From the UHGV virus genome UHGV-1828728: DNA of 39,345 bases, one strand, 5' to 3'. Below, piece after piece: positions 4,548 through 20,227 of the stretch. Position numbers and translations under genes: made by a program. The notes beneath the pieces were generated by a model that saw only the letters and a list, made by a program, of their open reading frames with translations, made no database searches and was not told the origin of the DNA. The first letter of the stretch is position 1; each line of letters starts with the position of its first letter. The DNA comes from a virus.

Positions 4548-7500
4548 ATGAACAAGCTATCTATGGGGGTGTTTCGCTGTTCAAGTGTCAGCGAAATATT
4601 GAAATACATTAGTGCAATAACATCTCACCGAGCGCCGATTAGATACGGCGTGGAAAAGGTGGAAGGCAAAAGCTATGACCGACTACGCCGGGAGGCGAAT
4701 CAGAAGGCGATAGATTTGCTTAATTCGCTGGTGGACGGCGCGACACTGACAGATGAACAGCGCCAGATCCTGGCTGGGTACACCGGCGAAGGCGGCATTG
4801 GCGGGTCCGTCTCCGAATATTACACACCAAAGCCGATCGCTGAAGGTGTCTGGGAGATCATGAAGCTCTACGGCGCGGACGTAGGTAACACTCTGGAACC
4901 ATCGGCGGGAACCGGCGTTTTTAATGAGACAAAACCGGTTGGTACGGTGATGACCGCGACTGAGATCAGCAGTGTTTCCGGTCGTATAAACCAGCTGTTG
5001 CACCCGGAAGACAGCGTACAGATTTCTCCGTTCGAACAACTGGCTGTAAGCACGCCTAACGATTCATTCGACCATGTTGTGGGTAACGTTCCGTTCGGTG
5101 GTCGTGATAACACACGCAACATCGATAAGCCTTACGCAGAAGAAACGGACATGGGTTCTTACTTCATGCTCCGCATGCTGGACAAGATAAAGCCAGGCGG
5201 ATTCATGTGCGTGATTGTGCCGCCGTCCATTGTTTCAGGTTCAAACATGAAGCGGTTACGCCTGCGCCTATCACGGAAAGCTGAATTTCTTGGTGCCCAC
5301 CGCTTGCCTACCGGTACTTTTGACGCAAACGGGACCAGTACAGTTGTTGATGTGGTGCTGATGCGCAAACATCCGGCAGAGATGGCTGAGAAAATCCCCC
5401 TGGTGGATGAAAGCACTCTCGAATCGGCAAATGTGCTTTGGCCAACGTTTATTTCTGGCAAGTGGTTTGAAAAGGACGGCCGCCGGTTTGTTCATGGCAC
5501 CCAGGAAAAGGGCTTCCAGGGGCGTATTGAGGTTCGTGCCGACGGTCAGATTGATAACCAGGCTCTTAAAGCGAAGCTGATTCATCGTTTCGAAAGCCGT
5601 ATCGACTGGTCTTTGCTCGATATGGCTGAACCGTCACCGACCGCAGACGTTGTTGGTGAAGGGGAAATGCGCCTGATTAATGGCGTATGGCAAAAATATG
5701 CTGGTGGTCGCTGGATTGAAGCTGATGCCGGGAAGGAACTTAAGATCGATGCTGCCAGTTATGGCGCGGATAGCTGGGAGGCTCTTCAGCGTAACCTGAC
5801 TACAACAGAAGGCCGTCTCGGCATGACATTTACCCAGATGGCAAATGTCCGCGATAAGTACACCACATCAATCAGCGACGATATGGTGCAGCTGGTGGAC
5901 TGGATTAACAGCCAGCCTGAAAAATACCGTGAACGCTTGTATCGCGGGGCGATGATTGGCCGGATGTTAATTGAATATCAGGACATGAAGGCCGCCGGGC
6001 ATAGTGCTGAACAAATCGAACAGCAGCGCCTTTCTCTGGTATCCCGTTTGCAGGCAGAGATTGACCGTTTTGGTAACCCCGGTCGCGGTCCGATAGCGAA
6101 ATTGTCGGGGAGCGGTGCGCGCGCCTGGTTTGCTTTCCGTGGTGCAATTAAGCTGGATGGCACTATTTCTGACGAGCTGACAGGGAAGCTGGTTACGCAT
6201 GATTCCAGCGCAAGTTATGACTCCACCAGCTATCAGGACACCCTGCGTTATCTCTATAGCGATCTCACCCGCGATCCAATCCAGCTCGATGATTTCCGCC
6301 TTGCGTTTACCGGCGAACTGCCAGCCAGTGATGAAGAGTTGCTTAATTTATTGGCCAGCACCCCCAGCGGCGACATTAACGAGATAGTGGCTCCAAAACA
6401 GGAATTCCTCGCCACACTCCCCGACGGTCCAGTAAAGAACAACGTCCTTAATCAGCTGGCAGCTATCGAAGAGAAGCGCATCAAGACGCCAGCAGAGAAT
6501 ATCCGGTTTAAGCTCAATAGCCGTTGGTTCGACCGTTCCGTCATTCTGGAATTTTTGCAGGAAAACGGCTATCCGGATCTGCGCTATGTGCAGTCAGTGC
6601 AGCTGGAAGGCGACGAAATGGTTTCTGACACCTATCACGGTGGTGATGGTCTGTTCGTCGGGCACCGATACGGTGTCGTCCAGCGCAAGGATAAAGAAAC
6701 AGGTGAGATTCGCTACGAGTGGGACCGTAAATCAGGTGAAAACGCGACCGGGTTCCCGGCACAGCTGGAAAAGTATCTCAATGGTGCGCGTATCGGTGGC
6801 AAAGATAGCGCGACGGCGAACGGCTACCGCGAGCAGATGGCACTGCTTGAGGACCAGTTCAATAAGTGGATCAAGACGCACGATCGCTACGATGAGCTGG
6901 TTGCCAAATACAACGATGTGTTCAATAGCAATATCCCGTATGAACACTCTGGCGATCCGCTTGGGTTGAAGGGATTAAGCGGTAAGCGCCAGCCATTTGA
7001 TTACCAGAATAGCGAGGTGCGCCGACTGTCCGAAGATGGGCGCGGCATCCTGGGCTTCGGCACCGGGCTGGGTAAAACCACGACCGCGCTGGCGCTTGAG
7101 GCGTTCAACTATGAGAACGGTCGCTCCACCCGTACTGCGTATGTAGTGCCTAAATCAGTGCTGGAAAATTGGTATTACGAAGCAAAAGAATTCCTGAGTG
7201 AAGAGGCATTCAGTAACTACTTGTTCGTCGGTCTTGATGTGCTGATGGATGGCGATCAGATTCGCCAGGTGCCGGTGCTCAATGAGAACGGTAAACCTGT
7301 TCTTGGTACTGATGGCACTCCAGTTATGCGCGATGCTCTTAAGCTGGCAGATGAAGCCACTATCACGGCGCGGATGAACGCGATCCCGCACTCAAATTAC
7401 CGTGCAGTCGTGTTTACCAAAGAACAATACGCCCGCATTCCGCTACGTGATGACACCGTAGATGAGCATGCACAAGACATGCTTTATGACTTCGTTGCCG

Positions 7501-10500
7501 CCGGGCGCGTAGCCAGCGCAATGGACTCCGACTCCCACCGCAAAGAGGCGGCGCGTCGCCGGGTATTGTCGGAGTATTCAGATACCGGTACCGAAAAAGC
7601 AGAGAAGTATCCGTACTTTGAGGATATGGGCTTCGACAGCGTGATTGCTGACGAAGGCCACAACTACCGCAATAGCTATAAAAATGGTCGCGAAGCGTCA
7701 CAGCTGGCCTATCTGCCCACCAGCGCGGTGGCGCAATCGGCGCGAGATATGGCAATCAAAAACGCGTACTTGATGAAAAAGAATGGCGGGCGCGGACCGG
7801 TTCTCCTGACTGCAACACCAGTCGTTAACACCCCGATCGATGCATACAACATGCTTTCTCATGTTCTGCCGAAGGAATACTGGCAGAAGATGGGGATCTA
7901 CAGTCCTGATGACTTCGTAAAATTCTTCGGCAAGACCAGGCTGGAAACGGTACAGAAAATCAGCGGCGAAGTTGAAGAAAAAATGGCGCTGGTGGGTTTT
8001 GAAAACCTTGATGCGCTGCGCGGCATATTCCATCGCTGGACAACGCTTAAAACAGCGGAAGACGTTAAGGATACCGTGGAGATCCCGGAACTGGACGAAC
8101 ACCAGCAGGATGCACCACTTACTGAAGAACAACTGGCGGCGTATGAAGAATTGCGTCAGCAGGCGGAAGCGGCGGCCAAAGCCAACAATGGTGTAACGAC
8201 CTCGGTCAATGAAGACGGCGTGATTGAGCACGAGAAAGCCCGTCCGATCTTCTCAATAATCAGGGATATGGACCGCGTATGTACTGACATGGACCTGTAC
8301 TATCGCCGGATCACCTATCGTTTCCTGCCGGAGTACGCCGATGCGGTGCAGCAGCTGGCAGACAGTTTGCCTAAACAAGCCACCAGCGAAGACGACGACA
8401 GTGATGATTCAATCACGCAGCAATCGCAATACTCCCTGATAGATAAGGGCGAGTTTATTCAGTTGCAGGTTCCGGAAGCGTTCGAGCAGGAAGTGAATAA
8501 GCGCCTGGCCAGGTTTGGCATTGACGAACAGACCGTAACTCACCCCGTTACGCCCAAATACGCGAAGCTGATTGCCACGCTGAAGGAGTTTTTCCCGGAA
8601 GGGAAGCAAATCATCTTCACCGATGAAAAAACGCAGCACCAGAAGCTCAAGCGCATTATCTGCAATGCTCTTAACCTTGAACCTTCAAAGGTGGGGATAC
8701 TGAATGCTCAGACGGTTGCCGAGGCAGGTAAAACCGGTAAGAAACTGAAAGCGGTTAAACCGCCGAAAGAGTTACCGGATGAACCAACAGATGCACAGAT
8801 AGCGAAATACAACGAGCAAATGGCTCTGTATGACGCCTATATCGCGCAGCAAAATGAAATGTCGTTGGGCGGTCTGGAAAAGATTGCAGCCGACTTCCAG
8901 GAGGGCCGGACTCCGATCATCATCTGCAACAAAAAGGCAGAGGTGGGTATCAACCTGCATCGAGGAACGACTGACATCCATCATCTGACGTTGCCATGGA
9001 CTCCAGCCAGTATTGCGCAACGAAACGGTCGCGGTGCCCGAGTTGGCTCCAACCGTGCAAGCGTTCGCGTTCACTACTACTGCGGCAAGGGTTCTTTCGA
9101 TGAATACCGACTGAAGACGCTGAAGCGTAAAGCAGGCTGGATCTCCGATATCCTCCGTTCAGATAAGTCAGAAATGGAGAACGCCGACGCCAACGATATG
9201 ATCGAAATGCAGATGTATACCGCTAAGGATGATGGCGAACGTCTGGCAATGATGCAGGTTCAAATGGATAAGGCGAAAGCCGCGCAACGCGCTCGCCAGA
9301 AAGAACAGGCTACTATCGACCTTCAGAACTACATCAAGGCGCAGCACGCAGCTGGTGAGGATGTGGAGGTGCTTACCGCTGAATTAGAGCGAAGCAAAGC
9401 GGAACTTGAAAAGACCACCGCCGACGTCGCCAAATTCAAACAGGCGGTAATGGCCAAAGCAGCTGATAACGCAGACTGGAAAGCCCGCTGGGGTAGCGTC
9501 CATCACACAGACCGTACGTTGTTAGCACAGTATCGCGCGTCGTTGAAAAGCGCCATTCAGCGCAAGGCTAATATCTCTCAGGCCATCTCCCGCTATGAGA
9601 AATTATTGAACCGTACTCAGAAGGCCGCGACGGATATCAAACGCCTGCGCCCGCTGGTGGAGGATGCAATAAATAAAGGCATTCTGGATGTTGATCCTGA
9701 TCTGGTTAACCATGCGAATGAGTTCCTTGTTATCGGCGATCGCTCATGGCGTGTAGGCCAATACTATGATTGTGCCGGTGATATCGTTCGCATTAAGTCG
9801 CTGGACTTCGACAGCCAGCGCGCAGACGTGGAGATCATCTTTACCTTCAAAGGCACCAAATCGGGTAACTGGGATGTGAAGACGCTGGATAAACAGGTTG
9901 ATGTAACTCCCGATGAAGATGCTGTTATGCAGAAAATCAGTGGTGGCGTCTCCATCGCCGGGATTAACGACATCATTTCCTGTGACGATTTCTACCGTTT
10001 CCAGCAGCGCGGCATGATCAAAATCACTGACTCATACGGCGTTCAGACTACAGAGTCAGGCTATAGCATCGATTTTGTTGGTACCTATACGGACCCACTG
10101 AAGCATGCGGTTTACCCGGATCGCCGTGACGGCGCGCTGAAGTCGTCAATTGCAAAATGGGTGCTTGGTATGATGTCGGAAGGGAATAACCGCCAGATCC
10201 GTTCGGCAGAAACATTCCTGGTTGAACTGTTTGGCTCCAATTATGGCGATGTAATCGCGTCATACGGAGATACGCTATCCCCTGAAGCAATTCAGGAGAA
10301 AATAGCGGATGCGATCGCCAGAATGCCGGAAAAAACAAGCCAGGGGGCTACTCGTAACGGGGATTCTGAACTTGAAGTCACCAATGCCATTTTCGGTACC
10401 AATGAGTTCCGGGCGTCAGATTATGAGATCACCACAGCACAGTTTGGCACCATTGGCATTTACAGCAATAAAGCCGAGATCAAGCAGGCAATGGACGCAG

Positions 10501-11264
10501 CAAGCGCGCGCATCGCAGCAGAACGGGAAGCCAATCTGAATCATGCAGTCGCCGCGCTGACTCAATCGTGGGTAACAGCAATCAGGGAGGCCGCCACCAC
10601 AGGGAAAATCACACCTGCAATAGCGGATGTCGTAAACGACGGCTCTAAATTTATGGATGCCTATCAAATGGATGCGGTGAAGTTGCCATCAGCCTATGGT
10701 CAACTCAGCTATCGCATGACCTACAACCTGGTATCAATGTTTTCCGACCTTGCCATCCTTGGGCTGGTGGATCTTAACGAGGTTACGCCGGAATTGCTCA
10801 GCATGCGCAAGAATCATGTGGAGATATTGCAGAGAATTAACACGGTTCTTGCCGGGCGCACCGATGAAGAGAAACAGGCCGACGCTGATCGGATAAACCT
10901 AGCCCTTGGCAACATCACGGAGGAAGAGATTGCCGCCAGAAACGAGAAACAAGAAGAGTTATCATCAATACAGGGTGATGCCACCAGCATAGCTCAGTCT
11001 CTTGGTCTGAATTATCGCGTATCCACCGCCGACCTGAAGATGATGTACGCACCAAAATTCGCCGCTGGCGAGGTATTTGGGCTTCAGGAAGCCTCAGGCA
11101 TGAAAGGCGTTCTTTTCCGTGCGAAAGACGCAATCAAGGCGAAATTCGGCGCTCGCTGGCTGCCAGCGAAGGCGAAGAACAGCGATTTCCCGGGTAACTG
11201 GTGGATTATCGAGACAAAACACAACGTGGCGGACGTTCTGGCCGTCATCCAACAATACGCATAA
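4548..11264 (+). CDS. darB: DarB-like antirestriction protein (methyltransferase-helicase fusion)
   Basis: 2238-aa ORF with ATG and AAGGA RBS. N-terminal region has an N6-adenine methyltransferase-like motif (VGNVPFGG); central region has SF2 helicase motifs (GFGTGLGKTT Walker A, VIADEGHNYRN DEGH box). Size and architecture match P1 DarB from memory. Confidence 0.85.
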   Translation: MNKLSMGVFRCSSVSEILKYISAITSHRAPIRYGVEKVEGKSYDRLRREANQKAIDLLNSLVDGATLTDEQRQILAGYTGEGGIGGSVSEYYTPKPIAEGVWEIMKLYGADVGNTLEPSAGTGVFNETKPVGTVMTATEISSVSGRINQLLHPEDSVQISPFEQLAVSTPNDSFDHVVGNVPFGGRDNTRNIDKPYAEETDMGSYFMLRMLDKIKPGGFMCVIVPPSIVSGSNMKRLRLRLSRKAEFLGAHRLPTGTFDANGTSTVVDVVLMRKHPAEMAEKIPLVDESTLESANVLWPTFISGKWFEKDGRRFVHGTQEKGFQGRIEVRADGQIDNQALKAKLIHRFESRIDWSLLDMAEPSPTADVVGEGEMRLINGVWQKYAGGRWIEADAGKELKIDAASYGADSWEALQRNLTTTEGRLGMTFTQMANVRDKYTTSISDDMVQLVDWINSQPEKYRERLYRGAMIGRMLIEYQDMKAAGHSAEQIEQQRLSLVSRLQAEIDRFGNPGRGPIAKLSGSGARAWFAFRGAIKLDGTISDELTGKLVTHDSSASYDSTSYQDTLRYLYSDLTRDPIQLDDFRLAFTGELPASDEELLNLLASTPSGDINEIVAPKQEFLATLPDGPVKNNVLNQLAAIEEKRIKTPAENIRFKLNSRWFDRSVILEFLQENGYPDLRYVQSVQLEGDEMVSDTYHGGDGLFVGHRYGVVQRKDKETGEIRYEWDRKSGENATGFPAQLEKYLNGARIGGKDSATANGYREQMALLEDQFNKWIKTHDRYDELVAKYNDVFNSNIPYEHSGDPLGLKGLSGKRQPFDYQNSEVRRLSEDGRGILGFGTGLGKTTTALALEAFNYENGRSTRTAYVVPKSVLENWYYEAKEFLSEEAFSNYLFVGLDVLMDGDQIRQVPVLNENGKPVLGTDGTPVMRDALKLADEATITARMNAIPHSNYRAVVFTKEQYARIPLRDDTVDEHAQDMLYDFVAAGRVASAMDSDSHRKEAARRRVLSEYSDTGTEKAEKYPYFEDMGFDSVIADEGHNYRNSYKNGREASQLAYLPTSAVAQSARDMAIKNAYLMKKNGGRGPVLLTATPVVNTPIDAYNMLSHVLPKEYWQKMGIYSPDDFVKFFGKTRLETVQKISGEVEEKMALVGFENLDALRGIFHRWTTLKTAEDVKDTVEIPELDEHQQDAPLTEEQLAAYEELRQQAEAAAKANNGVTTSVNEDGVIEHEKARPIFSIIRDMDRVCTDMDLYYRRITYRFLPEYADAVQQLADSLPKQATSEDDDSDDSITQQSQYSLIDKGEFIQLQVPEAFEQEVNKRLARFGIDEQTVTHPVTPKYAKLIATLKEFFPEGKQIIFTDEKTQHQKLKRIICNALNLEPSKVGILNAQTVAEAGKTGKKLKAVKPPKELPDEPTDAQIAKYNEQMALYDAYIAQQNEMSLGGLEKIAADFQEGRTPIIICNKKAEVGINLHRGTTDIHHLTLPWTPASIAQRNGRGARVGSNRASVRVHYYCGKGSFDEYRLKTLKRKAGWISDILRSDKSEMENADANDMIEMQMYTAKDDGERLAMMQVQMDKAKAAQRARQKEQATIDLQNYIKAQHAAGEDVEVLTAELERSKAELEKTTADVAKFKQAVMAKAADNADWKARWGSVHHTDRTLLAQYRASLKSAIQRKANISQAISRYEKLLNRTQKAATDIKRLRPLVEDAINKGILDVDPDLVNHANEFLVIGDRSWRVGQYYDCAGDIVRIKSLDFDSQRADVEIIFTFKGTKSGNWDVKTLDKQVDVTPDEDAVMQKISGGVSIAGINDIISCDDFYRFQQRGMIKITDSYGVQTTESGYSIDFVGTYTDPLKHAVYPDRRDGALKSSIAKWVLGMMSEGNNRQIRSAETFLVELFGSNYGDVIASYGDTLSPEAIQEKIADAIARMPEKTSQGATRNGDSELEVTNAIFGTNEFRASDYEITTAQFGTIGIYSNKAEIKQAMDAASARIAAEREANLNHAVAALTQSWVTAIREAATTGKITPAIADVVNDGSKFMDAYQMDAVKLPSAYGQLSYRMTYNLVSMFSDLAILGLVDLNEVTPELLSMRKNHVEILQRINTVLAGRTDEEKQADADRINLALGNITEEEIAARNEKQEELSSIQGDATSIAQSLGLNYRVSTADLKMMYAPKFAAGEVFGLQEASGMKGVLFRAKDAIKAKFGARWLPAKAKNSDFPGNWWIIETKHNVADVLAVIQQYA

Positions 11265-11297
11265 CAGGAGCGCCCGGTTCGCCGGGCGTCGCATAAT

Positions 11298-11738
11298 ATG
11301 GCCACACTATCTGATACAATAAAACCGAATAAAACATATCTTGAGGCGGTACTCCGTACAGCGTTGTTAGGAAAGACAGAAGACGAATACGTTGATTTCT
11401 TCCTGTCAGGGCTACGCGGGCGATTACTGAAAAATCCCCGCCTGTACCGCAGCTATGGTCCATACTGGCCGGAAATTAAAAAATTATTACTGGAGCGCGG
11501 TTATGGTAATTTCGGTCGTCTCGTTGACCGTGACGTTCGCAAAATTTACCGTTATGACCGCCCGGCGCTAACACTCATAGCCGCGACGCTCTACAGCCAG
11601 GAGCGTTTTGATAATGGTCAGATATACTCAGCCTGGCATTTACTGCCAGTGCCTGAAGAAGTTGACGACCAGGACTATGAGTTTGAGTCTTACGATTTGG
11701 AAGTTGAAGCCTTGGCACAGGCTGGAGAGAAAACTTGA
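11298..11738 (+). CDS. ulx: Ulx-like protein (downstream of darB)
   Basis: 146-aa ORF directly after darB in the same orientation; named by P1 synteny (darB-ulx-lxc) only. No SD seen before the ATG. Confidence 0.5.
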   Translation: MATLSDTIKPNKTYLEAVLRTALLGKTEDEYVDFFLSGLRGRLLKNPRLYRSYGPYWPEIKKLLLERGYGNFGRLVDRDVRKIYRYDRPALTLIAATLYSQERFDNGQIYSAWHLLPVPEEVDDQDYEFESYDLEVEALAQAGEKT

Positions 11739-11983
11739 AAAAGCGATACTACACAGTAAAGCATGGGACGCTACGAGCATTACAAGAGTTTGCTGATAAG
11801 CATAACGTTGAGGTGCGCAGGGAAGGGGGAAGTAAAGCTCTGCGCATGTACCGCCCGGACGGGAAATGGCGTACGGTCGTCGATTTCAAAACTAACAGCG
11901 TTCCCCAGGGCGTCCGCGACCGGGCATTCGAAGAATGGGAGCAAATCATCATAGATAATGCATTGCTCCTGAATGCTGATTAA
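11735..11983 (+). CDS. lxc: Lxc-like small protein (C1 co-repressor in P1)
   Basis: 82-aa ORF with TTG start overlapping the ulx stop (TTGA); position and size fit P1 lxc from memory. Confidence 0.45.
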   Translation: MKKRYYTVKHGTLRALQEFADKHNVEVRREGGSKALRMYRPDGKWRTVVDFKTNSVPQGVRDRAFEEWEQIIIDNALLLNAD

Positions 11984-11987
11984 GTTT

Positions 11988-12020
11988 GTCTAGCCCGGTT
12001 AATACCGGGCTGGTTTAGAC
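11988..12020. terminator. hairpin terminator at the lxc / cassette junction
   Basis: Imperfect hairpin GTCTAGCCCGG-TTAATA-CCGGGCTGGTTTAGAC between convergent genes; T-richness after it is only moderate. Confidence 0.45.
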
Positions 12021-12041
12021 ATCTTAAGTGGGTGTTAATTT

Positions 12042-12551
12042 TTAATTATGGTTAATCATATCTAACAGTATTTTTAGCTTCCTGCATGTGTTATCAATAT
12101 CTTTACATAATATGACATCAAGGATGTTTGGTAGTCCTAATACCATATGAGAAATGAAACCCTCGCCAACTTGTAGATTATGGGTAGTCTCATCTGGATT
12201 CACGTATTCAATGGTTTTAGTTTTATTTATCCCATAATCTTTATAACAGATGATTACAGGAATGTTCTTCTGTTCAGCAATCTGCAACTCTATTCCTAGC
12301 CCTGTTGATGGAAAACTACATTCTGCAATTATTACATCAGATTTCTCAACCATATCTCTGTCCCAAATGTAACAAAGTCTAGATTTGTTACTTTCAGGGC
12401 GCTTTGATAATTCTGGGTCACTATTTATCAAAGCATATTTTACGTTGTTATTTTGAGATAAACCTTTTGCAAGGCTGTGAATCCAATTACTGTACTCATG
12501 GAAAATTTCCCTTGGAACATGAGTTAAAGCGCATGCGATATATATATTCAT
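12042..12551 (-). CDS. nucleoside 2-deoxyribosyltransferase-like (N-glycosidase fold) protein, cassette gene B
   Basis: 169 aa; N-terminal MNIYIACAL and internal DVIIAECSFPSTGLGIELQIAEQKNIPVI resemble the NDT/Rcl family strand and catalytic-Glu motif (GLGMELGYA in Lactobacillus NDT, from memory). ATG overlaps the stop of gene A (TAATG). AT-rich. Confidence 0.75.
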   Translation of the reverse strand: MNIYIACALTHVPREIFHEYSNWIHSLAKGLSQNNNVKYALINSDPELSKRPESNKSRLCYIWDRDMVEKSDVIIAECSFPSTGLGIELQIAEQKNIPVIICYKDYGINKTKTIEYVNPDETTHNLQVGEGFISHMVLGLPNILDVILCKDIDNTCRKLKILLDMINHN

Positions 12552-13591
12552 TAAGAAGCAGACCTTACGTTTGGGATAAGAAATTGGTGTCCAGTAATTT
12601 CAGATGAAATTGCATCTATAAACTGTGACGGAGATTGTTGAATAAATTCAGCAATAATCCAGTTTTCTTTTTCATTTAGTAACTGTCTTAGCTTAAGTGG
12701 GTCATACCGACATAGCTCACTTAATCGATGCATAGCTGCTAGGGTTATAACCAATGGCGATATTGAAACAGAAGTATGCTCAGATTGATTGTTTTTACGT
12801 TTGAGATACCAAAGAGTCTCTGCGCCATTGATATAGTAAAGATTTCTTCTTATTTTTTGATGAAATTCAGTTAATTGCGGCATGTTGGACGATTGATTTT
12901 CATTAAAATCAAGTAATGATTCTACTGATTTTATTTTGTACTTTTCTCTTTCAAACAATTCGAACGCTGGCGGTAGAATGTCGAAAACTGTGTCGAACCG
13001 AAAATCCTTGGATAAAATCGCAGTGAAAAACAGGCTATTGTCTGACTCATTCAAAACGAACTCAGCATCGATCAGTGGAATAAATATATCATCAGTTACA
13101 TCATAAGTAAGGCAATATGTACGATGAATATATGGCAATCCAGAAAAAAGGTTTTTTATATTGTACACCCCCTCATGAGAGGTGCCGTCAATATATTTTG
13201 AAAAAGACGGAAGTATACCCTCATTTTTTATTTTTACTTTTATATCAGATAAGTTATCAATTTGGGCTGCATTTTCACCCCTAGCAACACCATGATGCTG
13301 TTTGAAGTTTATATTGCGAGATGAAAGTAACGCCTTTACTGCATTCATGAATGAATAATAGTGCAAAAGTGGGGCTGATTGGTTGGGTAAACCATTGGCC
13401 GCCTGATTAAATACTTTTGCTTGCTCCCAATAAAAAAGAGCCTCATCTTTTTCGTTTCGCTTTAACCAGAGTTCGACAAAATCCCAATGACTGTATGTAA
13501 GTACATTCCTTGCGGTTAGGTCAGGGTTTAATGATGCTTTATGAGGCTTCATGACCTTGTTCCTAATTTTCAGCGGCTTAATATTCATCAT
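12551..13591 (-). CDS. hypothetical protein, cassette gene A (no recognisable domain)
   Basis: 346-aa ORF with tandem ATG start, GGAGG SD 9 nt upstream, sigma70-like promoter further upstream; no catalytic motif identifiable by eye. Confidence 0.75.
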   Translation of the reverse strand: MMNIKPLKIRNKVMKPHKASLNPDLTARNVLTYSHWDFVELWLKRNEKDEALFYWEQAKVFNQAANGLPNQSAPLLHYYSFMNAVKALLSSRNINFKQHHGVARGENAAQIDNLSDIKVKIKNEGILPSFSKYIDGTSHEGVYNIKNLFSGLPYIHRTYCLTYDVTDDIFIPLIDAEFVLNESDNSLFFTAILSKDFRFDTVFDILPPAFELFEREKYKIKSVESLLDFNENQSSNMPQLTEFHQKIRRNLYYINGAETLWYLKRKNNQSEHTSVSISPLVITLAAMHRLSELCRYDPLKLRQLLNEKENWIIAEFIQQSPSQFIDAISSEITGHQFLIPNVRSAS

Positions 13592-13620
13592 TGTAATAAT
13601 CCTCCACCCAAAGTTACTAG

Positions 13621-13649
13621 ATTGTAAAATATATATTTTTGTTCCACAA
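13621..13649 (-). promoter_or_regulatory. sigma70-like promoter of the AT-rich cassette
   Basis: Minus strand: -35 TTGTGG (13644-13649), 17-nt spacer, -10 TACAAT (13621-13626), about 30 nt upstream of the gene A ATG; no C1 operator-like sequence seen here. Confidence 0.45.
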
Positions 13650-13681
13650 CAAAAATCTCTATTGGCTACTGACGTAATTAA

Positions 13682-14323
13682 TTATAAATAGTTTTCTTTG
13701 CCGGTAAGTAAGCCTTGAGGAACTCGCTTGTCGGCTAGACATTGGGTTCCGCGAATTATGTTAATCAGAGGGCTTAGTAACGATGGTTCCTGGCGGGCCT
13801 CAACTTCTCCAGCCATTGCCCTGATGTAGTCGGCGCTTGCAACGTTGTTATATTCCGTTGCGAAGCAGCATAACAACGACAGAACGTGCTCTGTCGTTAT
13901 TTCGCTCCAGTTGATGTTGAAAAATTCATCGCCTTTTTTGTCGTGTTCGGAATCGAAGATGCTTTGGTGGAGGATGTATTTGCCGGATTCTTTGCGCGGT
14001 AACTTGATCGCTTTCTGGCGTTCCAGCTCCTTGTAAATCTGCATTGCTTCAATTAGTACCGGCCTGCCGTTCATGAAGGGATCGCGCAACCTTACACGCT
14101 GGCCAACTCGACCCGTAATAAAGCTGTTTTCCTCTTCCACCAGCACGATAAAACCCTTTTCCTCTTTTTCTCGCAATTCGCGCAGCAGCTGGAGTTCCAT
14201 ATCGCGGCGGCGTTCAGGGTAGCTGGTCCGCTCAGCCATTATCAGCTCATTGTTGATCCATGCGGCAGTCATTGACGCCGGTTTGCCGACGCTCATCGAA
14301 ACAACGCATATTTTCTTATCCAT
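13682..14323 (-). CDS. mat: Mat-like protein (P1 backbone gene adjacent to ref)
   Basis: 213-aa ORF from ATG 14323 (AGGGG SD; the track start 14350 is GTG); normal GC; sits next to ref as mat does in P1. Name by synteny only. Confidence 0.5.
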   Translation of the reverse strand: MDKKICVVSMSVGKPASMTAAWINNELIMAERTSYPERRRDMELQLLRELREKEEKGFIVLVEEENSFITGRVGQRVRLRDPFMNGRPVLIEAMQIYKELERQKAIKLPRKESGKYILHQSIFDSEHDKKGDEFFNINWSEITTEHVLSLLCCFATEYNNVASADYIRAMAGEVEARQEPSLLSPLINIIRGTQCLADKRVPQGLLTGKENYL

Positions 14324-14511
14324 AGCGCCCCTACAAAAAAGAAAAGCCACCAGCGGCGGCTTAGCAATACAACTGAAGGTAGCGCCCGGTACTCAGACTG
14401 TGCCGTCCATGGAATATTTGAAAAGGGATCCATCCGTACCGGGCATGTGATGATTCTGACTGAAGTCACTTGTCAGTTGTCAATTATTTCAGATTAAAAA
14501 TAATATATTTA

Positions 14512-15072
14512 TTAGTGCATGCTGTTTGCCATCTCATAGGCGTCAGCCAGCAACTCCATCTCTGACTTGTTCAGCAAGGTGAATTCTTTCTTGCCTCCAA
14601 CCACACCATCGGCATGAACAGGGACCAGCCAGGGGTATTTTTCTCTTACTTCAGCCGGTGCTGCATGCTGGTGGTGCCATCTACAAAGTGGCAATTGCTT
14701 TTTGTGACAACCAGGCGCGGTACGACCGGAGATATGGTGCAGAGACACCTCTTCAGATATTACTCCATGCATATAGCAGGCAATGCAGGGGAGAGCGCCA
14801 AGAGCATTGGCTATGCGCCGCTCCTCCGCCGTCGGTGTTCGTCCCTTCAAGCCACGAGATTTTATTTTTACCGCGCTTTTCCGCGTTTTGCTGGCTGGTG
14901 GGCGCTCTTTCTGTTTAGCGATACGGCGGTCGATAGTATTCCGCATTTTCTGATATTGAGATTCTCGCCAGGCCGGATCAGCCAACTTCTCCCGTTGCCG
15001 AGCGATCGCTCGTTCTCTGGCTGCCTTCTGCCACTTACGGTGCTGTTCAATTTTTTGTTCGATTGTTTTCAT
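14512..15072 (-). CDS. ref: Ref (recombination enhancement function, HNH-type endonuclease)
   Basis: 186-aa product starting MKTIEQKIEQHRKWQ..., Cys/His-rich C-terminal half; matches P1 Ref from memory. The track ORF extends upstream to 15177 but Ref begins at the internal ATG. Confidence 0.85.
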   Translation of the reverse strand: MKTIEQKIEQHRKWQKAARERAIARQREKLADPAWRESQYQKMRNTIDRRIAKQKERPPASKTRKSAVKIKSRGLKGRTPTAEERRIANALGALPCIACYMHGVISEEVSLHHISGRTAPGCHKKQLPLCRWHHQHAAPAEVREKYPWLVPVHADGVVGGKKEFTLLNKSEMELLADAYEMANSMH

Positions 15073-15077
15073 ATGGC

Positions 15078-15103
15078 AAAAAAAAGGCGGCCTGATGGCC
15101 GCC
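15078..15103 (-). terminator. terminator-like hairpin in the ref leader (possible attenuator)
   Basis: On the minus strand, stem GGCGGCC/GGCCGCC with loop ATCA followed by T8, ending 5 nt before the ref ATG. Confidence 0.4.
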
Positions 15104-15163
15104 AATGATGTCAAGGAGTTAAGTAATGGCAACGTCTTCGTAGTTGACAAAAACTGCGGCTCA

Positions 15164-15187
15164 ATTATAGCAATCAATTAGAGCAAT
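15164..15187 (-). promoter_or_regulatory. ref promoter with overlapping C1 operator
   Basis: Minus strand ATTGCTCTAATTGATTGC TATAAT: operator core (15171-15187) immediately upstream of a perfect -10 TATAAT (15164-15169). Confidence 0.5.
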
Positions 15188-15247
15188 GGTAGAGATTTTG
15201 TTTATCGCGAATCACATTTTTTCACTTCAGTACCTGTGTGCTATACT

Positions 15248-15321
15248 CCTTCTTGATTGATTGGATGCGGAATACAAACCCGCTCTTTTGTGCAGCCTGG
15301 CTCCTTGCCAGGCTTTTTTTT
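15248..15321 (+). ncRNA. candidate small RNA (promoter plus intrinsic terminator, no ORF)
   Basis: Extended -10 TGcTATACT (15239-15247), about 45 nt containing GATTGATTGG, then hairpin AGCCTGGC-TCCTT-GCCAGGCT (15294-15314) and T8. No coding potential on + strand. Existence as an RNA is inference. Confidence 0.25.
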
Positions 15322-15631
15322 ATTTCATCATGGAAGCTGTTAATGCTTTGGACCTTGCTGAACTGATTGAGAGGGCTTTGTCAACGTGCCCCAAAAATTC
15401 GCCAAACTCAGACATCACTTTAGCAAAACCGCGCCGTGCTTCTTCCTCGGTGGCATTCATCACGAAATGTTCAGCACTACGCATACTTCTGACAGGGAAC
15501 GCAACGGATATTGAGTCAATATCAGGCATTCTATCGCTCAGCTTTACAGTGACAATGACGGCTGGCGACTGAATATTAGTGCTCACTGACAGCACTACAT
15601 ATTTTCCGTCGATGTTGAAATTCTTTCTCAT
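15320..15631 (-). CDS. cra: Cra-like protein (cre-associated)
   Basis: 103-aa ORF between cre and ref with ATG and GGTGA SD; C1 operator-like site just upstream. Name by synteny. Confidence 0.6.
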   Translation of the reverse strand: MRKNFNIDGKYVVLSVSTNIQSPAVIVTVKLSDRMPDIDSISVAFPVRSMRSAEHFVMNATEEEARRGFAKVMSEFGEFLGHVDKALSISSARSKALTASMMK

Positions 15632-15647
15632 ATGTCACCATAAATAT

Positions 15648-15664
15648 CAAAGAATTAGAGCAAT
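15648..15664 (-). promoter_or_regulatory. C1 operator-like site upstream of cra
   Basis: Core ATTGCTCTAAT (reverse complement of 15654-15664); 13/17 to consensus. Confidence 0.45.
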
Positions 15665-15681
15665 CATTTACGCGTTAATGG

Positions 15682-16713
15682 CTAATCGCCATCTTCCAGC
15701 AGGCGCACCATTGCCCCTGTTTCACTATCCAGGTTACGGATATAGTTCATGACAATATTTACGTTGGTCCAGCCACCAGCTTGCATGATCTCCGGTATTG
15801 AAACTCCGGCGCGGGCCATATCTCGCGCGGCTCCGACACGGGCACTGTGTCCAGACCAGGCCAGGTACCTCTGACCAGAGTCATCCTTAGCCCCGTAAAT
15901 CAATCGGTGAGTTGCTTCAAAAATCCCTTCCAGGGCGCGAGTTGATAGCTGGCTGGTGGATGATGGCGAGGCAACACCATTTTTTCTGACCCGGCAAAAC
16001 AAGTAGTTATTCGGATCATCAGCCACACCAGAGACGGAAATCCATCGCTCGACCAGTTTAGTTACCCCCAGGCTAAGTGCCTTCTCTACACCTGCGGTGC
16101 TAACCAGCGTTTTCGTTCTGCCAATATGGATTAACATTCTCCCACCGTCAGTACGTGAGATATCTTTAACCCTGATCCTGGCAATTTCGGCTATACGTAA
16201 CAGGGTGTTATAAGCAATCCCCAGAAATGCCAGATTCCGTATATCCTGGCAGCGATCGCTATTTCCCATGAGTGAACGAACCTGGTCGAAATCAGTGCGT
16301 TCGAACGCCAGCGCCTGTTTTGCACGCTCACCGGCATCAACGTTTTCTTTTCGGATCCGTCGCATGACCAGTGAAACAGCATTGCTGTCACTTGGTCGTG
16401 GCAGCCCGGACCGACGATGAAGCATATTTAGCTGGCCCAAATGTTGCTGGATAGTTTTCACTGCCAGACCGCGCGCCTGAAGATATAGAAGATAATCGCG
16501 AACATCTTCAGGTTCTGCGGGAAACCATTTCCGGTTATTCAACTTGCACCATGCCGCCCATGACCGGCAAACGGACAGAAGCATTTTCCAGGTATGCTCA
16601 GAAAACGCCTGGCGATCCCTGAACATGTCCATCAGGTTCTTGCGAACCTCATCACTCGTTGCATCGACCGGTAATGCAGGCAAATTTTGGTGTACGGTCA
16701 GTAAATTGGACAT
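15682..16713 (-). CDS. cre: Cre tyrosine recombinase
   Basis: 343-aa product beginning MSNLLTVHQNLPALPVDATSDEVRKNLMDMFRDRQAFSEHTWKMLLSVCRSWAAWCKLNNRKWFPAEPEDVRDYLLYLQARGLAVKTIQQHLGQLNMLHRRSGLPRPSDSNAVSLVMRRIRKENVDAGERAKQALAFERTDFDQVRSLM and ending NIVMNYIRNLDSETGAMVRLLEDGD; matches canonical Cre from memory apart from a few substitutions. Confidence 0.97.
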   Translation of the reverse strand: MSNLLTVHQNLPALPVDATSDEVRKNLMDMFRDRQAFSEHTWKMLLSVCRSWAAWCKLNNRKWFPAEPEDVRDYLLYLQARGLAVKTIQQHLGQLNMLHRRSGLPRPSDSNAVSLVMRRIRKENVDAGERAKQALAFERTDFDQVRSLMGNSDRCQDIRNLAFLGIAYNTLLRIAEIARIRVKDISRTDGGRMLIHIGRTKTLVSTAGVEKALSLGVTKLVERWISVSGVADDPNNYLFCRVRKNGVASPSSTSQLSTRALEGIFEATHRLIYGAKDDSGQRYLAWSGHSARVGAARDMARAGVSIPEIMQAGGWTNVNIVMNYIRNLDSETGAMVRLLEDGD

Positions 16714-16720
16714 TTAACAC

Positions 16721-16942
16721 TCAGATAATGGTTTTAAGTAAAGTGTACAGGATCGGCTCTGCCTTTACCTGTTTATGGTTCTCGTCATAGAAACGCCAGC
16801 GACCGCGCGTGCGTTCTATTTTCTCTTCACCGCGCGATAATGACAGTTGACAACTATCACGATCAAACCCTTTTGCCCGCCAGTAACCACGGTTTTTCTC
16901 AAGCTCAATATGAGTGGACACTTTAGCAGCTGAATATCCCAT
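16721..16942 (-). CDS. hypothetical 73-aa protein between loxP and cre
   Basis: ATG with GAGGTG SD at 5-nt spacing; stop 8 nt before the cre ATG; lies in what is normally treated as the cre promoter region. Confidence 0.45.
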   Translation of the reverse strand: MGYSAAKVSTHIELEKNRGYWRAKGFDRDSCQLSLSRGEEKIERTRGRWRFYDENHKQVKAEPILYTLLKTII

Positions 16943-17040
16943 TTTTCACCTCTGATTGATTGGTGGTGCTAAGTGCGCTACGCGAAATCTGGAGCACTAA
17001 CACTGCCAACATTTCGCAGATTTTACGTAGCGCAACCTTG

Positions 17041-17117
17041 ATCAAATGATCAAGTGATCACTATTTGACCTGATAAGGTATTGAACTGTATGGATTTACA
17101 GGTAAATTGATCATGTT
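17041..17117. promoter_or_regulatory. GATC (Dam site) cluster next to loxP
   Basis: GATC at 17041, 17049 and 17057 within 20 bp plus another at 17111; P1 cre transcription is described as Dam-methylation sensitive (from memory). Confidence 0.4.
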
Positions 17118-17131
17118 CAATAACCCTTAAG

Positions 17132-17165
17132 ATAACTTCGTATAATGTATGCTATACGAAGTTAT
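17132..17165. other. loxP: loxP recombination site
   Basis: Exact ATAACTTCGTATA-ATGTATGC-TATACGAAGTTAT (13-bp inverted repeats, 8-bp spacer). Confidence 0.97.
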
Positions 17166-17208
17166 TAGGTCCGAAGAGGAGTTTACGTCCAGTTGCGCAT
17201 AAAAATCA

Positions 17209-17225
17209 AGAATTATTAGAGCAAT
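17209..17225 (-). promoter_or_regulatory. C1 operator (immC)
   Basis: AGAATTATTAGAGCAAT, 15/17 to consensus in reverse orientation. Confidence 0.5.
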
Positions 17226-17285
17226 AAATTTTGAGAGAAAAATCCCACTCCACCAGCCAAAAACTGGATTGTTTTTCATAGTTGT

Positions 17286-17314
17286 TTGACAATTGCTCTA
17301 ATAAATTATAGTTT
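17286..17314 (+). promoter_or_regulatory. immC promoter with embedded C1 operator
   Basis: TTGACA (17286-17291) followed by ATTGCTCTAATAAATTA (17292-17308, 16/17 to consensus) overlapping a TATAGT/TAGTTT -10; reads toward coi-c1. Confidence 0.55.
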
Positions 17315-17546
17315 TGCCGCCGTTTCGTAATACGACTTTGGATTCACTATTTAATGTGTCTTCAGCGTTGTAGAGCGGCTCAGAAGGAAATGAGCAAACA
17401 GGGAAACCTTATACAACGGCATTACAGCTATGCATTGCTCATCTTACACACAGCGCAATGTTGTTAGATTACCCCAGCATGGATCATGGGTGAAACAGTA
17501 GGTCAGAGCTTCAGGCTCTGTGTTGTCAATACAGTGAGGCATAATT

Positions 17547-17756
17547 ATGGCTTTCATTCCACCAACCATCGACGACGTTAGACATTGCTCTAACGCTTTA
17601 TCTGTAGACCCCGCCGAAACCGACGCTGCCCGCGCCATTGCTGAACACTACTCAAAGATATCCAATCAGGAGTACCGCATCACCCAAGACGACCTGGATG
17701 ATCTCACTGACACAATCGAATATCTCATGGCCACTAACCAGCCAGACTCACAATAA
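17547..17756 (+). CDS. coi: Coi (C1 inactivator)
   Basis: 69-aa ORF immediately upstream of c1 with ATG and GTGAGG SD; size and position match P1 coi. Confidence 0.8.
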   Translation: MAFIPPTIDDVRHCSNALSVDPAETDAARAIAEHYSKISNQEYRITQDDLDDLTDTIEYLMATNQPDSQ

Positions 17757-17772
17757 ATGCACTAATAAATCT
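17756..17772 (+). promoter_or_regulatory. degenerate C1 operator-like site between coi and c1
   Basis: AATGCACTAATAAATCT, 14/17 to consensus. Confidence 0.35.
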
Positions 17773-17866
17773 ATTATTTTCGTTGGATCCTTCTATAATG
17801 GTGGCCAACAACTCCCAGTGTAATCCGCTGTGAGTTGTTGGCCATGTCAATTCTGGAGGAGGATCA

Positions 17867-18718
17867 ATGATAAATTATGTCTACGGCGAACAACTGTACC
17901 AGGAGTTCGTCAGCTTCAGGGATCTCTTTCTAAAAAAAGCTGTTGCACGCGCCCAACACGTTGATGCCGCCAGCGACGGTCGTCCTGTTCGCCCGGTTGT
18001 CGTTCTGCCGTTCAAAGAAACGGACAGCATTCAGGCTGAAATTGATAAATGGACTTTAATGGCGCGGGAACTGGAACAGTACCCAGACCTCAATATCCCA
18101 AAGACTATTTTATATCCAGTGCCTAACATCCTTCGCGGTGTGCGTAAGGTTACGACTTATCAGACAGAAGCTGTGAACAGCGTCAACATGACCGCTGGCC
18201 GCATTATTCATCTGATTGATAAGGACATTCGCATCCAGAAAAGCGCAGGGATCAATGAGCACAGTGCGAAATACATAGAGAACCTGGAAGCAACAAAAGA
18301 GCTAATGAAGCAGTACCCGGAGGATGAAAAATTCCGTATGCGCGTACACGGCTTTAGCGAAACAATGCTGCGCGTCCATTACATTTCTAGTAGCCCTAAC
18401 TACAATGATGGTAAATCAGTTAGTTACCATGTGCCGCTATGTGGTGTGTTTATCTGCGATGAAACTCTCCGTGATGGAATTATCATCAACGGTGAATTCG
18501 AGAAAGCAAAATTTAGCCTTTATGACTCTATAGAACCGATCATCTGCGACCGCTGGCCGCAGGCAAAAATATATCGCCTGGCAGATATTGAAAATGTAAA
18601 AAAACAAATTGCCATCACTCGCGAAGAGAAAAAGGTCAAATCAGCCGCATCAGTTACGCGCAGCCGTAAAACTAAGAAGGGGCAGCCAGTAAACGACAAC
18701 CCCGAAAGCGCACAATAG
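17867..18718 (+). CDS. c1: C1 repressor of lysis
   Basis: 283-aa product beginning MINYVYGEQLYQEFVSFRDLFLKK; matches P1 C1 in sequence and length from memory; GGAGGAGG SD. Confidence 0.95.
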   Translation: MINYVYGEQLYQEFVSFRDLFLKKAVARAQHVDAASDGRPVRPVVVLPFKETDSIQAEIDKWTLMARELEQYPDLNIPKTILYPVPNILRGVRKVTTYQTEAVNSVNMTAGRIIHLIDKDIRIQKSAGINEHSAKYIENLEATKELMKQYPEDEKFRMRVHGFSETMLRVHYISSSPNYNDGKSVSYHVPLCGVFICDETLRDGIIINGEFEKAKFSLYDSIEPIICDRWPQAKIYRLADIENVKKQIAITREEKKVKSAASVTRSRKTKKGQPVNDNPESAQ

Positions 18719-18742
18719 TTTCCATCCGGCATGGTCAATGAG

Positions 18743-20227
18743 TTATTCATTAAGCCATGCCAGAGCTTCATCAACCTGCGCTTCGTCTTCGACGCTAAGC
18801 ACTTCATCCTGGGGAACATAATCCGCCAGCATAGCGAAACAATATGTATCCCAATGGTCTGGTGAGTGCAGGTTGAGTTTTTTCTTCATATCCTCCTTAC
18901 TCATCACCTTCCATTGACCTGCGGAGTTAATCCCTACAGGGATTTTCGACGCTTCCTCAATAGTTTCATTACCCTTATCCAGTCTCATACGACCAGATTT
19001 TACGGCCTCTGCGGCTTGAACGTTGGCATAAGCACGTTTATCAAAGTACAGGCTCTTATCTTCACGGCTATGCATCTTTTTACCCCAGCGTATACGCTGT
19101 ACGGTAATACCATAATACTCGTACATCAGATCCGCCGTTGCTTTACCCAGGCCATCGCCGTCTATCGCTATGGTGATATTTGGGAATCGCTCAGGATTAC
19201 ATTCTGCGAAAATTTTGGCGGCAAGCTGCGTTTCTGTAACGTCTGTGTATTCCAGCATTCGATAGTTGATTACACGGCGTTTATTTCGCTGGCCGGACAC
19301 CATCATGATATTGATAACGGACTTATCCCGTCCCGTACCACCAGCAACGTCCACACATGCAAGCCAGCCCCATCCTTTGGCAATCTTGACTTTCCGCCGC
19401 GTTGCACGTTCAACCTCATCACGTCCAAGAAGGAAGCCATCCTGTGATTTAGGGAATAGGCCGCGTACCTTAATCATGTACATAGGGTTATCGCGCCCGC
19501 CGTACTCCGCCAGCTTCATTTTGATAAATGCTGGCGTTACCAGCGGTGATTCCTCACTGTTAAGCGTGATCGCCGTATAAACGCCATCAGGGTTACCAAG
19601 ACGCTTGGCCAGTTTATGGTGAGTATCGTAGAAATAGCCGCTTGGGCGTGTAGGCTGTGACAGTAATAAGATGCGGTTATCCTGTCCGGTAAGAGCACCG
19701 GTGATGATACCGAAAGCTCTATCACTGACACCGGAGGCTTCATCGATAATATACAGAAGATGATCTGCGTGTTCACCGGCGAGAGCTTCTTCACTTCCCA
19801 GACGAAAGCCCTTCGGTACTACAGTCCATACACCTTTACCAGTAACCTCATAGAAAGCGGTTTCTGTCAGAACAAAATAATCAGCAAGCCATGGAAAACG
19901 GCTGGTGGCAGTAGCCCAGTTTATCTTGATGTACTTGAATATACCGGTCATTACCTGCTGAATTTTGTTCGCAACGATAATGGCGCGGGCACCGGGATAC
20001 ATGATTATGAACAACATGATCATGATAGAAGTCATGTCTGATTTCCCGGTACCGTGACCAGACGAAACAGATGTCTTGCTACCCTGTTCCTGCACAGACT
20101 CAATAATCAGATCCTGCTGCCAGGTAGGTGTTTTGCCGAACAAAACATCAGCGGCAGCAATCCAGTCATAACGATATAGCGCCACCAGCTCGCGCCAACG
20201 TGGATCCGTTACGCAACTTCTGGCCAT
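18743..20227 (-). CDS. pacB: terminase large subunit PacB
   Basis: 494-aa ORF; ATG overlaps the pacA stop (TAATG); size and position between pacA and c1 match P1 PacB. Confidence 0.9.

Follow-up and report, generated by a model that had tools for sequence, protein, structure and literature searches.

A YaaC and NDT-like gene pair in the lxc-mat slot of a P1-like phage-plasmid as a candidate two-gene anti-phage defence cassette

The stretch of DNA analyzed here, called the window in the following, comprises 39,345 nucleotides of the UHGV virus genome UHGV-1828728. According to its gene content, the host element is a P1-type phage-plasmid. Between its genes lxc (11735-11983, plus strand) and mat (13682-14350, minus strand), two genes were identified on the minus strand. 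Gene A (12551-13591) codes for a protein of 346 amino acids belonging to the YaaC family, and gene B (12042-12551) codes for a single-domain protein of 169 amino acids from the NDT/DNPH1 superfamily, a putative N-glycosidase. They lie in an exchangeable cassette of about 1.68 kb (11988-13668), which was delimited by its GC composition and by the homology breakpoints in P1-like relatives. There is about an even chance that the two genes act together as a mobile cassette for anti-phage defence, which the P1-like phage-plasmid carries at the site where P1 has its type III restriction system.

The open reading frame (ORF) call for gene A agrees with the original prediction in position, strand and length. 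It is initiated by ATG, with in-frame ATGs at 13591 and 13588. Since 757 homologues were found in a word-indexed search and 1,260 YaaC cluster representatives among 1.84 billion in an exhaustive profile search (E ≤ 1e-3), gene A is not a chance ORF. Reading of the sequence also confirmed the expected overlap of the two genes in a TAATG junction (12549-12553, minus strand), in which the stop codon TAA of gene A (12553-12551) shares one nucleotide with the start codon ATG of gene B (12551-12549). The coding strand at this junction reads CTTCTTAATGAATATA, and a candidate weak Shine-Dalgarno sequence for gene B, TAAGGT, is located within gene A, 10 nt upstream of the junction.

Gene A had been regarded as lacking any recognisable domain, which is contradicted by the Pfam family PF14175 (YaaC-like protein). 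This family matches the protein with an E-value of 5.9e-46 and 157.7 bits, compared to a cut-off of 27, and the match covers nearly the full profile (positions 18-307 of 307). Furthermore, the identical gene is annotated as "YaaC family protein" by RefSeq/PGAP in about 100 E. coli plasmids, and all 120 homologues listed from the word-indexed search carry PF14175. The YaaC family is real, yet fairly small. For three of the homologues, the JGI label is "UPF0332 family". When A was compared with the PDB by sequence, neither the single sequence nor a profile gave a significant match. Neither NCBIfam nor PHROGs contained a meaningful match for A or B, and among the models of PADLOC-DB v2.0.0 no family was hit by either of them (0 each at E ≤ 1). 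A fusion (Rosetta-stone) search among ten longer YaaC proteins revealed no second informative domain. In the searchable literature, "YaaC family", "YaaC-like" and PF14175 occur in no paper, the papers containing the whole word YaaC hold no functional data on it, and none links YaaC to HEPN or to phage together with defence. The yaaC gene of Bacillus subtilis belongs to a group of genes co-evolving with polC (PMC3814617).

The structure of A was modelled with AlphaFold2 on the basis of 52 homologues, with a mean predicted local distance difference test score (pLDDT) of 92.5 and a predicted template modelling score of 0.92. In the model, A is predicted as a HEPN four-helix bundle of the AF0298/UPF0332 type, which is split by an alpha/beta domain of about 180 amino acids. 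The predicted helices form an up-down bundle that superposes on solved HEPN domains; a Foldseek search of A against the PDB returned nothing significant. The N-terminal HEPN helices (residues 35-45, 49-65, and 73-91) are encoded at 13319-13489 on the minus strand, as are the alpha/beta insert between HEPN helices 2 and 3 at 12758-13309 (residues 95-278) and the C-terminal HEPN helices at 12593-12757 (residues 279-333), which were placed by the model and by the motif position given in PMC3710099. A C-terminal tail containing P340-N341-x-R343 follows at 12554-12592 (minus strand, residues 334-346) and was delimited by clade conservation. HEPN domains carry a variable insert at the helix-2/helix-3 position (PMC3710099). 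In A, residues ~95-278 lie between the helix 73-91 and the helix 279-296, making this insert unusually large for the superfamily. No structural match was found for it.

The Rx4-6H motif of HEPN domains sits at the end of helix 3 (PMC3710099). At this canonical site, the helix 279-296 of A ends with M287-H288-R289-L-S291-E292-L-C-R295-Y296, and conservation of the site residues reaches 97-100% in the clade linked to B as well as in the clade lacking it. The canonical motif is not present in A: the arginine is kept, and positions +5 to +7 are cysteine, arginine and tyrosine, with no histidine among them. HEPN domains of the AF0298 type are typically without the motif histidine, and an alternative conserved histidine from the helix-2/helix-3 insert was proposed for them (PMC3710099). 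Across the YaaC family, the insert contains the invariant residues H100-G101 (shortly behind helix 2), H156-R157, R248, and W261-Y262; H288, R289, S291, E292, R295, Y296, W311, E315, and F316 are likewise conserved in both clades. As polar residues are conserved with and without B, the family-wide conservation of histidine, arginine, glutamate and tyrosine looks like an active site or a ligand pocket. Judged by its predicted fold, A is a HEPN-fold protein outside the catalytic Rx4-6H class.

Other residues of A are specific for the B-linked clade. N341 is found in 100% of this clade vs. 0% of the B-less proteins and R343 in 100% vs. 41%, and T158, S222, L284, and Q336 are also invariant only there. 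Some of these residues, including the P-N-x-R tail, may contact B. The original prediction had pointed to the R-x6-H string RKNNQSEH as possibly HEPN-like. This string exists (residues 265-272), but it was rejected as a HEPN motif: its arginine and its histidine are each conserved in 3% of the B-linked clade, and it falls into a gapped loop which has the lowest pLDDT of the model body.

The description of gene B as NDT-like is borne out weakly by the single sequence and more strongly by the family profile. PF05014 matches gene B alone with an E-value of 1.8e-4 and 22.1 bits, under the gathering score of 28.8, and it matches 47 of 47 B homologues (E ≤ 0.01, best 2.2e-8). Searched against the PDB, the B family profile identified Rcl/DNPH1 (E = 4.7e-5) and the NDT entry 7m5h (E = 1.1e-3). 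The aligned core of B is D64...A76-E77..P81-S82-x-G84-x-G86-x-E88, and Y4, D64, and E88, the last within PSTGLGIELQ, are invariant in the 47 sequences. D64 and E88 align with their counterparts in Rcl/DNPH1, where E88 is placed on the glutamate of the G-x-G-x-E segment. In the passage of PMC3710099 that cites Porter et al. (1995), this glutamate is given as the nucleophile in the superfamily. Due to the three invariant residues and the position of E88 on the superfamily nucleophile, B looks like a competent N-glycosidase, with Y4 as a putative part of its catalytic signature. In addition, B contains an extra conserved C-terminal segment with Y116, N118-P119-D120, H124, and L126-Q127-x-G129-x-G131. 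Likeness to a known antitoxin or a DNA-binding domain was detected neither in A nor in B using Pfam and NCBIfam.

Scanning of one genome per species resulted in 72 YaaC loci. A homologue of gene B is located directly downstream on the same strand in 33 of them, and these are exactly the loci with a YaaC profile score above 440 bits; the remaining ones score below 405 bits and have no B. After refinement of the B starts, the two genes overlap by 1 nt in eight pairs and by 4 nt in two, they are +2 to +16 nt apart in 20 pairs and +66 nt in one, and three spacings are unresolved; the spacing is between -4 and +16 nt in 30 of the 33 pairs. In crude ORF calls of two loci from alphaproteobacterial metagenome-assembled genomes (L022, 199-1850; L023, 329-1989), the YaaC and B ORFs appear to overlap by about 160 nt, which may be due to an artefact of the start codon, a frameshift or a genuine long overlap. 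The pairwise identity matrices of A and B are correlated (Mantel r = 0.71, reached by 0 of 2000 permutations), which shows co-inheritance of the two genes, with shared host phylogeny contributing. Two B homologues that were looked up independently, in Bradyrhizobium and Chryseobacterium, both have a YaaC gene upstream with a 1-nt overlap. Among the viral contigs of IMG/VR, four contain the same cassette, four diverged A-B pairs and six YaaC alone, so that B is found downstream in 8 of 14. The hosts of A-B pairs include Pseudomonadota, Bacteroidota, Myxococcota, Campylobacterota, Planctomycetota, Spirochaetota, and Armatimonadota. No conserved third gene was found around the YaaC and A-B loci, the neighbours being heterogeneous. 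The frequency of the pairing, the narrow spacing and the Mantel correlation bear out the earlier view of A and B as one coupled unit. Two adjacent, co-oriented genes with coupled translation, a coupling that is conserved, are a feature of type II toxin-antitoxin systems. Together with the defence-like contexts described below, coupling and co-inheritance make the proposed sensor-effector or toxin-antitoxin-like reading reasonable.

The cassette has a GC content of 33-39%, compared to about 50% in its flanks. This low GC content identifies it as horizontally acquired cargo. P1-type phages match the window only up to 11983-11987, the end of lxc. In other P1-like plasmids, the homology restarts at 13669-13682, where the mat stop codon is located, or inside the 3′ end of mat, with several distinct junctions. 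Mat itself varies in its C-terminus among the slot variants, because the junctions differ and some of them lie within the 3′ end of its gene. In the P1 reference, mat and lxc are separated by res and mod, the genes for the type III restriction system EcoP1I. A RelA/SpoT-domain protein is encoded in this slot in the Salmonella phage SJ46 and in a Klebsiella plasmid; that of SJ46 is the defence protein CapRel. A SIR2-family protein fills the slot in another P1-like plasmid, a DUF2971 protein in a further plasmid (L078, 6745-7785), and an EAL-domain protein together with a hypothetical gene in another element. Thus, comparison of P1 (L075) and five further loci (L076-L080) revealed at least five alternative contents besides the A-B cassette for the interval at 11984-13681 of the window. 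As sister elements hold differing immune-type cargo there, the lxc-mat interval is an exchange site for such cargo. Transposon-like direct repeats flanking the cassette were not found, and the exchange therefore probably takes place by recombination in the conserved flanks. The exact cassette was found in 77 PLSDB plasmids and in 109 of 5,426 complete E. coli genomes, in which it is almost always plasmid-borne.

Elsewhere, A-B pairs are found in the neighbourhood of defence genes. A chromosomal paralogue pair of E. coli, which is 59% identical, belongs to an integrase-associated island and is bordered by BrxR and integrase genes at one end and, at the other end, by a Dpd cluster (DpdD, PLDc_2, and a DEAD helicase). 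In these loci (L081-L084, ~6500-20300), BrxR is a WYL-type regulator and the Dpd side includes a QueD-like PTPS. Gene B was called short in two of them (103 aa in L081 and 158 aa in L084), for which the choice of start codon or damage is a possible cause. The pair of Bradyrhizobium is followed by Gabija-like AAA_15/AAA_21 and UvrD genes, and that of Chryseobacterium adjoins a PycTM gene. In a survey of the 120 genes nearest to the 33 pairs, the Pfam families seen most often were ResIII, DEAD, SWI2_SNF2, HSDR_N, DUF488, AAA_21, N6_Mtase, and OLD-TOPRIM, and the most frequent PADLOC matches were type I restriction-modification, PbeA, PDC-M19, MADS, and AriA. Type I/III restriction, OLD/AAA_21 and PADLOC candidates predominate among these families. 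B-less YaaC genes adjoin phage integrases, HsdM/HsdS, Mrr nucleases, the PADLOC candidate PDC-S31, and TnsA. In Aureitalea sp. (L027, 8367-12330), a B-less YaaC gene is part of an apparent type I restriction-modification operon, where its stop codon overlaps the start of hsdS by 4 nt and an upstream ORF of 545 amino acids ends at the YaaC start. In Marinobacter (L034, 11124-11981), the protein downstream of a B-less YaaC matches PDC-S31, and its N-terminus appears DUF2971-like by eye. Given this neighbour and the DUF2971 protein in the lxc-mat slot of L078, a recurring association with DUF2971 is possible.

Within the window, the P1-type element further encodes DarB (4548-11264, plus strand), Cre (15682-16713, minus strand), C8, Ref, Ulx, and C1. 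The spacer between mat and gene A (13592-13681, minus strand) contains a strong Shine-Dalgarno sequence, GGTGGAGG, at 13601-13608, which is 9 nt before the ATG of gene A. A candidate weak promoter was identified by eye in the same spacer, consisting of TTGTGG (13644-13649) and TACAAT (13621-13626) separated by 17 nt. Its candidate -35 element is overlapped by an imperfect inverted repeat with arms of 16 nt (13628-13643 and 13648-13663), which are 88% complementary, separated by a 4-nt spacer, and have the core TTTTTGTT-GTGG-AACAAAAA. This repeat could be an operator or a weak terminator of mat. On the other side of the cassette, between the convergent genes lxc (plus strand) and B (minus strand), reading of the sequence revealed a GC-rich hairpin, GCCCGGT-ATTA-ACCGGGC (11993-12010), which lies beyond the end of the P1-type match. 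It is possibly a bidirectional terminator without a T tract.

If A and B are a defence cassette, they would be made in fixed proportion and form a complex, with the P-N-x-R tail of A, which is specific for the B clade, as a possible contact with B. As the conserved core, A would sense the infection, with a phage product, a nucleotide or RNA as the ligand of its insert domain and HEPN pocket. Upon infection, A would release or activate B, and B would then cleave N-glycosidic bonds in the nucleotide pool, either those of deoxynucleoside monophosphates (dNMPs), including modified ones, or those of NAD+ and adenine nucleotides. This cleavage would starve phage replication or arrest the cell. Some of the DNPH1 entries of the PDB that are related to B are named 5-hydroxymethyl-dUMP N-hydrolase. 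It is an attractive possibility that B acts specifically on modified dNMPs, because its nearest relatives of solved structure are DNPH1 enzymes.

Several points weigh against a defence cassette of this kind. The case for defence comes solely from where the genes are located and from what lies next to them, and the neighbour surveys, which were based on simple ORF calling with no formal background control, are suggestive and not statistical proof. The B-less YaaC proteins retain the whole cluster of H100, H156, R157, H288, R289, E292, R295, and Y296. A is therefore likely to be biochemically active by itself, as a catalyst or by binding a ligand, and may be an effector and not a pure sensor; the original proposal of A as the specificity or sensor component is doubtful. 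With regard to expression, a scan with consensus models called no promoter or terminator upstream of A or downstream of B, the hairpin at 11993-12010 being missed because it has no T tract. Moreover, the window contains 11 matches to the C1 operator consensus ATTGCTCTAATAAATTT with at most 3 mismatches, compared to 0.15 expected by chance (at 757, 4602, 15171, 17209, 17292, 17756, 22030, 31641, 33733, 33782, and 37406), and none of them is located in or beside the cassette. As no promoter was called upstream of A and no C1 operator is near, expression of the cassette in the lysogen is uncertain, and read-through from mat would give expression in the lytic phase only. Finally, neither protein matches a PADLOC model, and no paper on the cassette was found.

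The conservation of the polar cluster also feeds the main rival explanation, which is rather unlikely. Here the roles are reversed, and A would be the effector, a non-canonical HEPN RNase or phosphodiesterase using H288/R289/R295/Y296 together with H100 and H156/R157. B would be an accessory enzyme in one clade and might act as an enzymatic antitoxin or regulator by removing or supplying a small-molecule ligand of A, or else as a second independent effector; the function would still be defence. The invariance of the cluster throughout the family, B-less members included, is in line with such roles. The same holds for YaaC genes standing alone or in type I restriction-modification operons (L027), which is the arrangement of PrrC- and Abi2-type HEPN nucleases, and for the alternative histidine proposed for AF0298-like HEPN domains (PMC3710099). 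The gene order, in which a small overlapping gene comes after that of a large HEPN protein, is reminiscent of rnlA-rnlB. However, no canonical Rx4-6H is found where helix 3 ends, and the aligned catalytic aspartate and glutamate of B are invariant in 47 of 47 sequences, which fits poorly with a mere inhibitor. Furthermore, NDT-like domains are the effectors in the known cases, and the occurrence of stand-alone YaaC without an antitoxin implies that A is not constitutively toxic.

The other explanations do without a defence function. An addiction module, stabilising the P1-like plasmid by post-segregational killing with no anti-phage role, would be in accordance with the layout of two small genes that overlap and belong to a low-copy plasmid prophage, in a slot that otherwise houses a restriction-modification system, which is likewise addictive, or CapRel, a fused toxin-antitoxin. 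It is considered improbable, as most A-B pairs are chromosomal and located in defence islands of non-plasmid replicons, and both proteins lack a DNA-binding domain and any likeness to known antitoxins; in addition, many toxin-antitoxin systems double as defence, so the two functions are not exclusive. Quite improbable is also a cassette serving the phage itself by counter-defence or by remodelling of the nucleotide pool during P1 development, in which B might hydrolyse immune signalling or unwanted nucleotides. The vicinity of darB and ulx, which are connected to anti-restriction, and of lxc, the orientation in the same direction as mat without a terminator in between, the lack of a called lysogenic promoter and the ability of related-fold enzymes to degrade or bind immune nucleotides all speak for it. 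This role does not agree with the bona fide defence genes that sister elements carry in the same slot, nor with the location of most homologous pairs, which are chromosomal beside defence systems and not in phage genomes. Very improbable indeed is that A and B are ordinary nucleotide-salvage or housekeeping genes hitch-hiking on the plasmid, although DNPH1 and NDT enzymes serve nucleotide metabolism and yaaC of B. subtilis co-evolves in a group with polC (PMC3814617). The patchy distribution and small size of the family (1,260 representatives among 1.84 billion), the foreign GC content of the cassette, the location of the genes in exchangeable slots, integrase-flanked islands and viral contigs, and the lack of conserved metabolic neighbours all argue against it.

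The defence cassette, with A as a sensor and B as its effector, is therefore preferred here. A wider and more speculative proposal, which we consider doubtful, takes YaaC as the core of an unrecognised anti-phage family that acts alone, in type I restriction-modification operons, or with exchangeable partners. With the domain without structural match at its centre, YaaC itself would be a HEPN enzyme or sensor of a non-canonical kind. In the clade of the P1-like phage-plasmids it would gate a DNPH1-like N-glycosidase that destroys a deoxynucleotide pool, possibly the modified hydroxymethyl-dCMP or hydroxymethyl-dUMP on which certain virulent phages rely, and such immunity directed at the pool could leave the host alive.

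If the cassette does serve defence, bacterial immunity would gain YaaC as a new family of sensors and a DNPH1-type enzyme in a new role, and a Pfam family without a function, with about 1,260 sequence clusters across many phyla, would obtain one. The res/mod slot of P1-like elements would then be a swap site for immune cargo as different as type III restriction-modification, CapRel, SIR2, DUF2971, and YaaC-NDT. E. coli and Salmonella from clinical and animal sources commonly carry P1-like elements, and the cassette may shape the susceptibility of these bacteria to phages, including therapeutic ones. DNPH1 is a human drug target, and insight into the regulation of enzymes of this kind could come from a bacterial relative that is subject to immune control. 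The cassette is a good candidate for validation and not an established system. Its components belong to known superfamilies, the HEPN fold and NDT/DNPH1, and a coupled pair in a defence slot follows a familiar logic; uncharacterised so far are the YaaC architecture, the insert domain and the pairing of YaaC with B.

Among known proteins, the best structural match of A is the HEPN-T of the AF0298/UPF0332 type (PDB 2hsb; also 1wol, 1ufb, and the sacsin HEPN 3o10). Like this group, A keeps the arginine of the motif and lacks its histidine, but it is three times larger and carries the alpha/beta insert of about 180 amino acids. There is no detectable sequence similarity to the solved HEPN domains and no Pfam HEPN match, and the site of A reads H-R-x5-R-Y. 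B resembles DNPH1/Rcl and NDT (PF05014) in the core D...AE..PS.G.G.E, in which the aspartate and the nucleophilic glutamate are kept, as well as in its single domain and similar size. It differs from them by the remoteness of the similarity, by the extra C-terminal segment, and by its constant pairing with YaaC, in contrast to DNPH1 and NDT, which work singly in nucleotide metabolism.

With regard to entire systems, EcoP1I res/mod and the CapRel-type RelA/SpoT protein of SJ46 are prophage-borne defence in the same lxc-mat slot; their proteins and mechanisms are unrelated to A and B, and the link is positional only. RnlA-RnlB and LsoA-LsoB also combine a multi-domain HEPN protein with a small coupled gene following it. 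A likeness to PrrC and Abi2 is given by the YaaC genes embedded in type I restriction-modification operons (PMC3710099). In contrast to all of these HEPN systems, A and B show no sequence relationship to them and no canonical Rx4-6H, and the partner is a conserved enzyme and not a small inhibitor. NDT-like domains have been described in defence, on the one hand in AbiJ-NTD1-NDT fusions (PMC3710099), and on the other hand in the retron Ec86, whose NDT-like effector was reported to deplete adenine derivatives (bioRxiv 10.1101/2023.08.16.553469). Unlike the retrons with NDT effectors, the cassette contains no reverse transcriptase or non-coding RNA, as A and B fill the 1.68 kb and the flanks are lxc and mat. 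The B profile retrieved no retron effectors from the PDB, and the partner of B is a HEPN-fold protein. What B would share with the retrons Ec86/Eco1 and Sen2 and with AbiJ-NTD1-NDT is the use of an N-glycosidase of the NDT superfamily as a toxic arm that is restrained by its partner.

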